A stretch of DNA of 64,000 bases from the NCBI GenBank assembly GCA_037445375.1, contig JBBIKS010000006.1:19237-83236 (forward strand), written 5' to 3'. How positions within the stretch are numbered: the first letter of the stretch is position 1; each line of letters begins with the position of its first letter. A program made the translations under genes and the position numbers. Shown piece after piece: positions 14,329-35,504 of the stretch. This DNA is from Nitrospirota bacterium. Lineage in GTDB: Bacteria > Nitrospirota > Thermodesulfovibrionia > Thermodesulfovibrionales > Dissulfurispiraceae. The notes beneath the pieces were generated by a model. That model saw nothing but the letters and a program-made list of their open reading frames with translations, was not told the DNA's origin and ran no database searches.

Positions 14329-15747
14329 TTATCTCAACGATTGTATTATGCCGCCAACGAGGCATTCTATTTCATGATTCTGGACTGTCCTCATATCTAA
14401 AATCAGCCGGTTATCATTTATTCTTGCAATTATGGGCAGGGTGTTTTTTCTGAGTCTCTTTTCAAGTAAATTAACAGAGATATTATATGGCTCTATTGAG
14501 ACTGCGAATGTTTCAAATTGAATCTCAGGAAGCGCTCCGCCGCCTGACTGGGAATAGTCTTTGATAATGTTAATTTCTGCATGATCATAAATTGAAAAAT
14601 CAGGCTGTATTTTTAGTCTTGATAATACCTTTTCAGCCCTTATTTTAATTGTTTCTTTATCTTCTAAAAGCATTCGCAATGTCGGTATTTCAATTTTTGC
14701 TTTTTCTTCATCAAGATATACTCTGAGAGTTGCCTCAAAAGCGGCAAGGGTCATTTTGTCAACTCTCAGTGCACGCATCAGTGGGTTTTGGGATATTTGT
14801 TCAATCAATTCAGATTTTGCTGCTATTATTCCCCCCTGTGGCCCCCCCAGCAGTTTATCACCGCTAAAGGTGACTATATCAACGCCCGCTTCTATAATCT
14901 CCTGAACCGAGGGCTCAATATGAATGCCGTATGGTTTAAGGTCAATAAGGCATCCGCTGCCAAGGTCGAACATTACAGGGAGATTAAATTTATTGCCTAC
15001 TGCAACAAGTTCTTGCATGGAAAGGGATTTAGTGAAACCGATCATTCTGAAATTAGACTGGTGGACTTTTAATAAGAGGGCTGTATTTTCATTAATAGCT
15101 CTCTCATAATCATGAATGTGCGTTTTGTTTGTAGTGCCTACCTCTTTCAGTATCGCACCGCTGCCAGCCATCACATCGGGTATCCTGAATGAGCCGCCTA
15201 TCTCGACTAATTCACCCCTTGAGACAATCACCTCCTTGCCTTTTGCGAGGGTATTCAGGCAAATAAGAACAGCAGCAGCATTATTATTGACAATTAAACT
15301 GTTCTCTGCTCCTGTTATTTCATTAAGTAATTGCTGTATATGCGAATATCTTTTGCCCCTTGCTCCTTTTTCCATATCATATTCAAGGTTTGAATATCCA
15401 CAGGCAATCTCTTTAACGTGCTGAATGACACCCTCAGAAATAATAGATCTACCGAGGTTGGTATGAATTACAACTCCTGTTGCATTAATTACAGGGATGA
15501 GGCTGAATGCAAAAAGTTTTTGTATTTTTTTATCTATTTTATCAAGTATTGCATCACGGCTGATATCTGCCTTAGCCCCGTTGAGGATATCGCTTCTTAT
15601 ATTCTCGATGACCTCTCGGACGGCTTGAAGCACATACTTTCTTGGGTATTTTTGTTGCCAAAGCAGTCCACTCTGGGATTTCAGAACTTCATCAACAGAA
15701 GGCAGACTGGATAGTAAGTATTTAGTACCATTCATCCGATAATACAC
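14329..15747 (-). CDS. selA: L-seryl-tRNA(Sec) selenium transferase
   Basis: PLP-lysine motif FSGDKLLGGPQGGII and a SelA-type N-terminus (LPSVDEVL). Confidence 0.9.
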   Translation of the reverse strand: MYYRMNGTKYLLSSLPSVDEVLKSQSGLLWQQKYPRKYVLQAVREVIENIRSDILNGAKADISRDAILDKIDKKIQKLFAFSLIPVINATGVVIHTNLGRSIISEGVIQHVKEIACGYSNLEYDMEKGARGKRYSHIQQLLNEITGAENSLIVNNNAAAVLICLNTLAKGKEVIVSRGELVEIGGSFRIPDVMAGSGAILKEVGTTNKTHIHDYERAINENTALLLKVHQSNFRMIGFTKSLSMQELVAVGNKFNLPVMFDLGSGCLIDLKPYGIHIEPSVQEIIEAGVDIVTFSGDKLLGGPQGGIIAAKSELIEQISQNPLMRALRVDKMTLAAFEATLRVYLDEEKAKIEIPTLRMLLEDKETIKIRAEKVLSRLKIQPDFSIYDHAEINIIKDYSQSGGGALPEIQFETFAVSIEPYNISVNLLEKRLRKNTLPIIARINDNRLILDMRTVQNHEIECLVGGIIQSLR

Positions 15748-28871: not shown

Positions 28872-28945
28872 GCCCCCTTAGCTCAGTAGGATAGAGCACA
28901 GGTTTCCTAAACCTGGTGCCGCAGGTTCGATTCCTGCAGGGGGTA
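28872..28945 (+). tRNA. tRNA-Arg (anticodon CCU)
   Basis: Hand-folded cloverleaf: acceptor GCCCCCT/AGGGGGT, D arm GCTC..GAGC, anticodon arm CAGGT-TTCCTAA-ACCTG, T arm GCAGG-TTCGATT-CCTGC. Followed by a T-run. Confidence 0.9.
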
Positions 28946-33575: not shown

Positions 33576-35504
33576 ATGAAAATCGGCACTATAAGCAATT
33601 ATATCAATATTAAGACTATCATCATATTTACTATTCAGTTCTTCCTTATAGTTACTATATTAGGCTATCGCTCATGGAAAGATAGGGGCGATGAGTGCCT
33701 CAAATGCCATTCAGATATGCAAAAGATGACTAAGCTCGGCTATCCCCAGTTTTATATAACTCAGGAGATGATAGAAAGGGAAAGCAAACATCCCAATATT
33801 AGATGTCAGGAATGTCATCTTGGTAACGCACGAGCCAAAGACCCTGATGAGGCGCATAAGGGTATGCTTGCAGTTCTTCTGGTCAGTGAAGAAGGGGAGC
33901 TTCTTAAGCGTAAAGATATTTACCCCAAGCCATTGATACCTGCTGGCAATGATAAAATCAGGGAGATGCTCCCGCAAGTCGAGTATGAAGGCGAACTTTA
34001 TCCACATCCTGATGTTAGAAATGTTCTTTGGCATGACAGAGACCCAATAACCCTGAATTATGACCCTGCCATAACCAAAAAAACATGCGGCAAATCAAAC
34101 TGCCATCCTGCAGAAACAACCCAATTCCATAAAACCATCATGGCAACTAATTTCAGGCAGAGGACTATGACCACATGGCTTGCGCCCTATGGTCCTCAAA
34201 ATTGAGGGCCATCCTTTGCGGACATACCTCCGTCGGAGGTATTAAAAGATAAAGGATTCTCATTTAAAAACACTCAGGAGATAGCCAAAGAAATCAACCT
34301 CCCTTTTACAAATCAGCAGGCTGTTGCGAAACAAAAATTTTGCAATGCCTGCCATACAGGCTGTCTTGACTGCCATTATGAGCCTAGTAGAGATAAAGGT
34401 GTTCATAATTTCACCTCAAAACCAGCTTCCCAGACATGCGGAGGTTATGGGAGAAATACGAGCATGTGCCATGCCGGCTCTTTGCACAGCAGAAGGGGAG
34501 GCACATATGTCGGAGGGGATTATTCGCTCCCAACTGGCATGAAAGCTGACACCCATTATAAAAAGAACATTCATTGCATTGACTGCCATTTAACCGGTCC
34601 AAAGGGTATGGGTGATATGCAGAGAAAGGCAAGCTGTCAGGACTGCCATATAGAAATCGAGGCTGCACACTCAAAGAGTGTCCATAAAAATCTTGATTGT
34701 GCAGCTTGCCACATAAATGAACTCGGAGGCTATCAGATTGTTGTATATGGTCCCGGCATGGTCGCTGGCAAGCCAAACCCTTTTAAAAAATACTCGCTAT
34801 ATCATGGCATCCAAAGCCCGCCGATAATTATGAAGGACCAAAAGGGCAAGTGGATGGCGGTAAAGGTATTTCCGCACTCAGTGGGCAATTTTAAACAAGA
34901 TGTAAAGTCATCAGAAAGCGTAATGTTCCGATGGAAAGATAGCGATATAAAAGACCCTTATTACATCATTGGAACTCACAGTATTGGCTCAAATGATAAG
35001 CATCTTTTATGGCTTGAGATACAACATGTCTCTCATCCGTATGGCAAGGGAAGGACATGCGAAAGCTGCCACAGCGAGAAACAAATCTCTATATCAAGAT
35101 GGGAGTACGAGGATGATCAGGGTGTTAAAGAGCCTTTCAAAGGCGGATACAAGATTATTGCTGACAAGTATGGTCTAAAGATAACTGACATGCAAAATAC
35201 TAACCCGATAGTTTTGGCTGACGGCTATAAGTTAGAAGACTTTGCCTCATGGCTTTTCCTGAAAGACAAATGGCAAATGCATGGGGATTTTTCAATAACT
35301 ACGGATAAGGATAAATATAATAAATATCTGAATCTTTCAAAAAAGATCAGCAATGAACTAAAAAACCTTGATAAGGAAATTAAAGGCAAAGACAAAAAGA
35401 TTCAAAGGAAATACCTTGAAATGAGAGGCATTGTGCTTCATAATGAAGATGGGGCAGTTGAACTGATTAAGGATTTTAAGCATAAGGAGAGCAGCTCAAA
35501 ATAG
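33576..35504 (+). CDS. Membrane-anchored multihaem cytochrome c with an in-frame UGA at 34203-34205 (candidate selenoprotein, 642 aa)
   Basis: Single frame with one TGA. Eight CxxCH motifs plus CGKSNCH. There is no in-frame ATG/GTG/TTG between 34206 and 34463, although CNACH and CLDCH are encoded there. Confidence 0.7.
34206..34257 (+). promoter_or_regulatory. SECIS-like stem-loop immediately 3' of the UGA
   Basis: Outer stem AUCCUUU (34211-17) / AAAGGAU (34251-57). Inner stem AUACCUCC (34224-31) / GGAGGUAU (34236-43). Apical loop GUCG. Confidence 0.6.

Follow-up and report, generated by a model that had tools for sequence, protein, structure and literature searches.

A conserved stem-loop behind an in-frame UGA is very probably a bacterial selenocysteine insertion sequence in a multihaem cytochrome c gene of Dissulfurispiraceae

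Bacterial selenocysteine insertion sequence (SECIS) elements are modelled, in a 2026 review of the prokaryotic selenoproteome, as hairpins with a loop of 3–9 nucleotides (nt), a stem of 4–16 base pairs (bp), a distance of 16–37 nt from the UGA codon, a minimum free energy (MFE) of ≤ −7.5 kcal/mol and a G at the first or second loop position or both, usually in the form N1-G-(G/U)-N-N2 with N1 and N2 paired (PMC13188914). Multihaem cytochromes with a UGA and a SECIS-like hairpin include MccSep, a five-haem periplasmic cytochrome c with selenocysteine (Sec) in a D-G-U-P loop of its immunoglobulin (Ig)-like domain and a His/Cys-ligated haem, which is the polysulfide reductase of sulfur respiration and belongs to a family that reaches Thermodesulfovibrionia (Mihara et al., Sci Adv 2026, PMC13510729). 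GSU2204-family CXXCH cytochromes (NF041027) and OTR-family octahaem cytochromes (TIGR04315) have also been tabled as cytochrome-type selenoproteins, with Sec in some members (PMC13188914). The stretch analysed here, termed the window, comprises 64,000 nt of a Nitrospirota genome of the family Dissulfurispiraceae (assembly GCA_037445375.1, 2.2 Mb in 105 contigs, 96.8% complete; contig JBBIKS010000006.1, positions 19,237 to 83,236) and contains a multihaem cytochrome c gene with an in-frame UGA that is followed directly by a stem-loop. An earlier note on this DNA had proposed that the stem-loop is a bacterial SECIS. Judged from comparative sequence evidence, it is very probably a genuine one: hairpin conservation, folding energy, the alignment of Sec with cysteine (Cys) forms, a continuous frame of 642 amino acids (aa), the presence of selA, selB and selD, and agreement with the bacterial SECIS model all support the proposal.

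The TGA at 34203–34205 is the sole internal stop of the 642-aa frame when it is read as Sec (U). A standard list of open reading frames (ORFs) divides the gene into two pieces in the same frame, 33576–34205 and 34464–35504; the ATG at 34464 encodes the Met within NTSMCH of a CX9CH motif, and therefore is not a gene start. The product is a multihaem cytochrome c by its Pfam Cytochrome_C7 match, and it has eight CxxCH motifs, one CX4CH motif (C171–H177) and one CX9CH motif (C288–H299), all of them invariant in a 67-sequence alignment. A protein collection search returned 120 full-length homologues of ~640 aa from metagenome-assembled genomes of Nitrospirota/Thermodesulfovibrionales, and every one (120/120) has Cys in the U210 column, within the invariant motif YGP[HQ]NCGPSFAD. 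The UGA stands opposite a conserved Cys with conserved sequence on both flanks, which is the arrangement of a Sec/Cys pair. Paralogue subfamilies (~43% and ~36% identity) retain this Cys in GP[HQ][NS]CG, and C210 is the only Cys in the 67-sequence alignment that is invariant and not part of a haem-attachment motif. Genome-wide reassignment of UGA was ruled out, with TGA terminating 323 of 1156 long ORFs (28%) in the source genome, and sequencing error was ruled out as the source of the TGA, which is common to 21 independent assemblies.

Direct reading of the window gives a two-tier structure. The upper stem is a perfect 8-bp helix with arms at 34224–34231 and 34235–34242 (3' arm GGAGGUAU), and the lower stem pairs AUCCUUU (34211–34217) with AAAGGAU (34251–34257) over all 7 bp. 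The earlier note had placed the perfect lower stem at exactly these positions and had rightly described a perfect 8-bp upper stem; its 3' upper arm, given as 34236–34243, actually lies one base further 5', and the GUCG cap that it reported has to be redrawn as a GUC loop (or C-GUC-G with the closing pair), since G34235 pairs with C34231. Its distance of 26 nt between UGA and apical loop (34206–34231) was correct, and the SECIS properties that it listed, a G/U-containing loop about 16–37 nt away, agree with the published model (PMC13188914). RNAfold recovers the two-tier fold together with an extra helix, UGAGG with UUCUCA. Against 200 dinucleotide shuffles, the 60-nt structure (MFE −21.4 kcal/mol) has z = −3.08 with 2 shuffles as good, the 47-nt structure (−17.5 kcal/mol) has z = −3.93 with none as good, and the 19-nt upper hairpin alone (−9.8 kcal/mol) has z = −3.69, again with none as good. 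Because the element lies within coding sequence, a second control kept the peptide and resampled synonymous codons by the genome's own codon usage; the observed sequence has z = −2.74 in this test, with 17 of 2000 samples equally stable, and all eight upper pairs arose in only 12 of 20000 samples (0.06%). The claim that such a structure is unlikely by chance is thus borne out against both kinds of control. Compared with the bacterial SECIS model, the structure (34203–34262) is directly 3' of an in-frame UGA and inside the 642-aa frame, has a 3-nt GUC loop on a perfect 8-bp stem, reads C-G-U-C-G across the apex with C34231 and G34235 paired, falls within the 16–37 nt spacing at 26 nt, and passes the energy threshold both as the 19-nt core and over 60 nt. 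It also behaves as the functional definition of a SECIS predicts, with covariation in orthologues that have UGA and dispensability in those that have a Cys codon. Coordinates are collected in Table 1.

Table 1. Coordinates of the stem-loop, the cytochrome gene and selA in the window
Feature	Position	Strand	Basis or remark
642-aa membrane-anchored multihaem cytochrome c gene, Sec at residue 210	33576–35504	+	Frame open with TGA read through
In-frame UGA taken as selenocysteine (U210)	34203–34205	+	Cys in homologues; TGA in orthologues
Whole predicted structure including paired UGA (UGAGG with UUCUCA)	34203–34262	+	MFE −21.4 kcal/mol
Lower 7-bp stem enclosing upper hairpin	34211–34257	+	Perfect in the window; genus-specific
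Probable conserved SECIS core, 8-bp upper stem AUACCUCC / GGAGGUAU, loop GUC	34224–34242	+	Folding energy, covariation, Sec/Cys contrast
Apical loop G-U-C	34232–34234	+	Closing pair C34231–G34235; fits consensus N1-G-(G/U)-N-N2
selA (selenocysteine synthase)	14356–15711 (C6:33592–34947)	−	TIGR00474, 613.1 bits, cut-off 267.9

Orthologues were sought in 301 genomes of the order and then in all 68 genomes of the family, with stops read through. The cytochrome gene was found in 146 of the 301 genomes, and a UGA occurs at the exact U210 codon in 18 genomes from seven genera, with frames open for ~640 aa; these are all eight genomes of the window's genus and members of six other genera of the same family. 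Metagenome contigs added three more distinct Sec forms, which brings the total to 21. Two apparent cases of a single TGA (L025 and L026) were discarded when the TGA proved to be the terminal stop. The region has no indels among orthologues, so the alignment is unambiguous, and the spacing between UGA and loop is identical in all of them. Conservation of the hairpin was one of the two points on which the earlier note had staked its proposal, and the hairpin is kept in the 18 genome orthologues and the three metagenome sequences that have UGA: the core CC(U/C)CC-G(U/G)(C/U)-GG(A/G)GG occurs in all 21 Sec forms, 6–8 of the 8 bp of the upper stem are retained in each, and every loop begins with G followed by U or G. 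The covariation that it had suggested looking for is also present. Among the 18 genomic Sec forms, 95.8% of cells in the upper helix are paired and three pairs have changed on both sides; over the whole structure 86% of cells are paired, compared with 48–58% when 3' partners are shifted by 1–3 columns. Two Sec forms (L021 and L113) have CCCCC/GGGGG in place of CCUCC/GGAGG, which keeps Pro and changes Glu to Gly, a third (L038) has G-C in place of A-U with a change from Val to Ala, and the outer pair of the upper stem is variously A-U, C-G or G-C.

Codon third positions within the hairpin are constrained in the same forms. Column 27 is U in 17 of the 18, the remaining form having a compensating change, and G occupies columns 30, 33 and 36 in 18/18. 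The same positions vary among the 16 Cys-codon orthologues (Fisher p from 6e-5 to 2e-3 per site), and at four-fold sites just 5' of the hairpin (columns 6 and 9) all four bases are present. Neighbouring synonymous sites are saturated, and there has therefore been enough time for an unselected hairpin to have decayed. The lower tier has a different history. Over the 18 Sec forms 71% of cells in the 7-bp lower stem are paired, mainly in the window's genus (g1), and RNAalifold favours a different, looser lower helix. In the pairing of UGAGG with UUCUCA, the pairs G2-C59, A3-U58, G4-C/U57 and G5-U56 are kept in 18/18, but conserved Gly and Phe-Ser codons put a constraint of their own on these columns. 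Beyond the genus, conservation is limited to the upper hairpin; the lower tier is a trait of the window's genus and no conserved part of the element.

Orthologues with a Cys codon provide the converse comparison. At least seven of the eight upper pairs are present in 18/18 Sec forms and in 3/16 Cys forms (Fisher p = 6e-7); the hairpin has been lost in 13 of 16 Cys forms of the gene set and in all six new Cys forms from metagenomes, and some Cys forms still reach 5–6 of 8 pairs. In a maximum likelihood tree of 34 orthologues (18 Sec and 16 Cys forms), Sec forms occupy most deep branches of the family and Cys forms branch from within them, a topology that needs no fewer than three changes. The hairpin persists in three Cys forms with a UGC or UGU codon, L034 and L037 of genus g6 and L045 of genus g9, and these three sit nearest to Sec forms in the tree: the sister of L045 is L044, and L034 and L037 share a genus clade with L046. 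Their more distant Cys relatives (L040–L042) have 3–4 of 8 pairs. This pattern fits what would be expected of a SECIS that became dispensable and has been decaying after conversion of UGA to UGY.

Of the Sec decoding machinery, the genome encodes selA, which lies in the window, selB (C69:8691–10547; 362.7 bits) and selD (337.8 bits), all above their cut-offs, and selD has an in-frame UGA of its own. At least six further genes have a Sec-UGA: fdhA (U356), a [NiFe]-hydrogenase large subunit, a rhodanese, an MccSep/ExtKL gene and two TsuA/YeeE-like genes; they come from a read-through screen and family searches, and are no census, the screen having missed the cytochrome itself at its thresholds. 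Each of these six genes has a hairpin whose loop starts 16–26 nt past the UGA. The candidate SECIS of fdhA has the triloop GUC and that of selD has GGC, and both triloops also occur among the cytochrome orthologues, which fits recognition of all these hairpins by one SelB. When a ribosome arrives at the UGA (34203–34205) in the cytochrome mRNA, the C-terminal domain of SelB, carrying Sec-tRNA(Sec), would bind the hairpin at 34224–34242, with its G-U apex 26 nt downstream, and SelB would bring selenocysteine to the A site in place of release factor 2. Translation would then proceed to a 642-aa protein with an N-terminal membrane anchor, ~10 c-type haems, a beta-sandwich and a helical tail, in which Sec210 would stand in for the sole invariant Cys outside haem-attachment motifs. 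We infer SelB binding and the actual insertion of Sec from the alignment, the open frame, the covariation, the decay in Cys lineages and the presence of selA, selB and selD.

Several observations weigh against a SECIS. Sec-bearing sequences are phylogenetically related, and their counts represent non-independent events. The conserved peptide Pro-Pro-x-Glu-Val favours part of the hairpin sequence. Rfam, at gathering and at permissive thresholds, has no SECIS or other family over the element, a negative that says little because bacterial SECIS elements are poorly represented there. No canonical tRNA-Sec(UCA) was found in the source assembly with ARAGORN, the Rfam tRNA-Sec model or blastn with the tRNA-Sec of congeners; this absence of selC, in a genome with selA, selB, selD and at least seven Sec-UGA genes, is likely to be an assembly gap, because four of the eight genomes of the genus (G031, G275, G212 and G076) have a normal tRNA-Sec(UCA) of 97–98 nt with G73. 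Synteny with the selC loci of congeners is broken in the source genome. Finally, three Cys-codon orthologues (L034, L037 and L045) have the full hairpin of 7–8 bp, which in L034 and L037 stays paired through a change on both arms (CUUCC/GGAAG). This compensated pair is not fully explained by decay and could mean that the hairpin has a value independent of UGA.

Four other explanations can be set beside a SECIS in the light of this evidence. If the TGA were a true stop, the gene would be split or decaying and the hairpin would be a by-product of coding for Pro-Pro-Ser-Glu-Val. Such a gene would appear split in the standard ORF list, as it does, and would end at a codon that is an ordinary stop in this genome, in an assembly without selC, and the PPxEV peptide does predispose to CCNCC/GGAGG pairing, with some Cys forms at 5–6 of 8 pairs; but a dead or divided gene is exceedingly unlikely given that 21 independent assemblies have the same TGA, an intact frame of 430 codons beyond it and invariant haem motifs, that the next ATG lies within a haem-binding motif, that 8/8 pairs appear in 0.06% of random synonymous codings, and that two of the compensatory changes alter the protein to keep pairing. 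The UGA might instead be read as Cys by a selC*-type tRNA-Cys with SelB, or as Trp or another residue by near-cognate suppression, with the hairpin binding SelB or causing a pause. The source genome does encode a tRNA-Sec-shaped tRNA with U73 (C30:26106–26233) and lacks a canonical selC in its assembly, and selC* tRNA-Cys molecules are known in Thermodesulfovibrio/Nitrospirae, where versions with a UCA anticodon insert Cys at UGA (PMC5389517). The anticodon of the selC*-like tRNA is, however, GCA here and in 13/13 relatives, and GCA cannot read UGA; congeners have a normal tRNA-Sec(UCA) with G73, selA and selD are intact and Sec decoding is needed to make SelD itself, and keeping UGA over UGC for millions of years is sensible only if the product differs from the Cys form. 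Read-through without Sec is accordingly very improbable.

A function of the hairpin that is unrelated to recoding and coincides with the UGA, for example in mRNA stability, in a translational pause for haem attachment or membrane insertion, or as a protein-binding site, would account for the 7–8 bp hairpins of the Cys-codon forms L034, L037 and L045, two of them with a compensated pair. Its probability is next to negligible, since 13/16 Cys forms of the gene set and 6/6 from metagenomes have lost the hairpin, the Cys forms that retain it are those most closely related to Sec forms, as would fit a fossil element, and the position, the loop G followed by U or G and the spacing fit the SECIS consensus and the genome's other SECIS candidates. 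The retained hairpins of L034 and L037 are compensated, which suggests continued selection and raises a further reading, in which hairpin, SelB and the GCA tRNA act together at UGY codons so that SelB delivers Cys (or Sec) at a sense codon. The tRNA-Sec-shaped GCA/U73 tRNA is encoded in the same genera as the hairpin-retaining Cys forms and in the source genome. If true, this reading would make the retained hairpins more than mere fossils, and we regard it as very doubtful. A bacterial SECIS that directs Sec to residue 210 therefore remains, by a wide measure of the evidence, the most probable explanation of the stem-loop.

The tRNA complement of the genome includes further observations. The tRNA on C30 (minus strand, locus L006) is 128 nt long, with anticodon GCA, discriminator U73 and an encoded CCA. 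Its acceptor stem has 8 bp and its D stem 6 bp with a loop of 4 nt, and the variable arm, at ~57 nt, is exceptionally long and contains a covarying hairpin of its own. This type is kept in at least ten genomes of the family; a short-arm form of 92–97 nt occurs in three relatives. Its very long arm aside, the tRNA agrees with the selC* tRNA-Cys class described by Mukai et al., which has been documented in Thermodesulfovibrio/Nitrospirae with UCA-anticodon versions that put Cys at UGA (PMC5389517). ARAGORN found no ordinary tRNA-Cys in the incomplete source assembly. In the congener G076, selC and a tRNA-Arg(CCU) gene are ~90 nt apart; the window has the counterpart of this tRNA-Arg at 28872–28945, but the arrangement is not kept here. 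A dispersed repeat of ~190 bp (75–94% identity) occurs on at least 15 of the genome's own contigs, including C83, C17, C33, C82, C10, C22, C9 and C49, and a copy in a congener (L053:683–871) adjoins the selC locus there. This repeat may contribute to assembly breaks.

The other selenoprotein genes show features of their own. In the [NiFe]-hydrogenase large subunit (C25:15452–17158, minus strand; locus L084/L149, relatives L150–L160), the UGA is the second Cys of the N-terminal nickel motif (RICGVU-TTVH) in 6/6 genomes of the genus, and the C-terminal DPCxxCxxH retains both Cys; six genomes from other genera of the family have UGA in place of each Cys of the N-terminal motif, three codons apart (RI-U-GV-U-TTVH). 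Known [NiFeSe] hydrogenases have Sec in the C-terminal motif, and Sec in the N-terminal motif looks unusual. In the two TsuA/YeeE-like membrane protein genes (C46:12671–13216, minus strand, and C22:3069–4064, plus strand), an in-frame UGA falls within the conserved G-C-x-x-G-H motif, as ADGUPSGHG and AGGUTVGHS, and the loops of both downstream hairpins contain GGU. A rhodanese-domain protein (C34:23322–24671) has UGA in its active-site loop. The MccSep/ExtKL gene (C80:3100–4404, plus strand; L082:601–1905) encodes 434 aa with U308 in the motif HVIPDGUPTPNR.

A confident AlphaFold2 model of the window protein (predicted local distance difference test score 85, predicted template modelling score 0.82) consists of a transmembrane helix (residues 12–36), a haem region (40–380) that includes U210, a beta-sandwich (389–541) and three C-terminal helices (578–641). 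Foldseek of this model against the PDB gave nothing at E ≤ 0.001, and the fold therefore points to no function; sequence searches of the PDB, whether with the protein alone or with a profile of 67 sequences, gave only weak matches to NrfH and NrfA at the level of haem motifs. The gene is preceded in the window by genes for UbiA and a 233-aa 4Fe-4S protein and followed by cobalt transport genes. These neighbours are not conserved beside orthologues, and no operon-based function can therefore be assigned; in other genera (L090–L103) a RodZ-like gene lies upstream and RNase R directly downstream of the cytochrome gene. Dissulfurispiraceae/Thermodesulfovibrionales are a lineage of sulfur reduction and disproportionation. 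Three points bear on the role of U210: Sec takes the place of the one invariant Cys that is free, Arg194 and Arg196 are invariant and near U210, and the lineage lives on sulfur compounds. From these, Sec210 most likely serves sulfur or selenium oxyanion or polysulfide chemistry as a redox-active nucleophile or as a residue that ligates a haem or lies close to one, a role proposed by analogy with MccSep and from the sulfur-disproportionating lineage.

In every Sec-using genome, gene callers report two "cytochromes" of 209 aa and 346 aa in place of this gene, and the family is thus invisible as a selenoprotein. Recognition of the SECIS restores a ten-haem membrane-anchored cytochrome in which the sole free invariant Cys is replaced by selenocysteine. 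A full-text search of the open-access literature returned no paper that describes this protein family, which is also absent from the NCBIfam models scanned and from the selenoprotein table of PMC13188914; by the open-access literature and libraries searched, it is treated here as a selenoprotein family not yet catalogued. Paralogues had only sub-threshold NCBIfam matches to the cytochromes ExtN, ExtO and ExtM. MccSep is the only other characterised multihaem cytochrome selenoprotein that we found, and the source genome encodes both, as two unrelated multihaem cytochrome c selenoprotein genes (the window gene and the MccSep gene on C80). It is somewhat more probable than otherwise that the window cytochrome represents a second, structurally distinct class of multihaem selenoenzyme, and this is more probable than SelB-dependent decoding at UGY codons. 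That the same genomes have a second multihaem selenoprotein, unrelated to MccSep, suggests that haem chemistry in the sulfur cycle depends on selenium more widely. Moreover, the family offers a natural experiment on SECIS evolution, covering origin, upkeep by compensation that costs amino acids, and stepwise decay after conversion of Sec to Cys.

Comparison with the described cytochromes sets the window protein apart from each of them. The genome's own MccSep (P0122, on C80) served as a positive control and scored 593 bits on NF040886 and E = 4.5e-171 to PDB 9wt8. The window protein has no NF040886 match in the NCBIfam scan, where its sole match was ExtM at 19 bits against a cut-off of 800, no match to 9wt8 in a PDB sequence search, although 9wt8 was in the searched set, and no significant similarity to P0122 by BLASTP beyond matches at the CxxCH level. 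Membership of the NF041027 and TIGR04315 families, which are likewise c-type cytochromes with some Sec members, was rejected, with no match to either at E ≤ 0.01. Identity with MccSep/ExtKL was ruled out by the lack of NF040886 and 9wt8 matches, the haem count, the Sec motif and the lack of a second free Cys.

The window protein and MccSep/ExtKL (Geobacter GSU2937-2936; NF040886; PDB 9wt8) share several features. Both are multihaem c-type cytochromes with one Sec, a UGA and a downstream SECIS-like hairpin, each begins with a haem region and continues into a beta-sandwich domain, both have Cys counterparts that arise from Sec clades, and both occur in Thermodesulfovibrionia. They differ in size (642 aa and ~10 haems in the window protein, ~440 aa and five haems in MccSep), in the Sec site (N-U-G-P in the haem region as opposed to D-G-U-P in the Ig-like domain) and in targeting (a membrane anchor as opposed to a cleaved signal peptide), and the window protein, unlike MccSep, has no second conserved free Cys for haem ligation. 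At the level of RNA, the element resembles bacterial SECIS elements of the E. coli fdhF/fdnG type in lying in frame and directly 3' of a Sec-UGA, in its small loop of G followed by U or G, in an 8-bp upper stem with an MFE below −7.5 kcal/mol and in its loss where UGA has become a Cys codon. Its triloop of 3 nt is at the lower limit of the model, and it has no counterpart of the bulged U that is a feature of the E. coli fdhF SECIS. Its primary sequence, CCUCC-GNC-GGAGG, is specific to this gene family.

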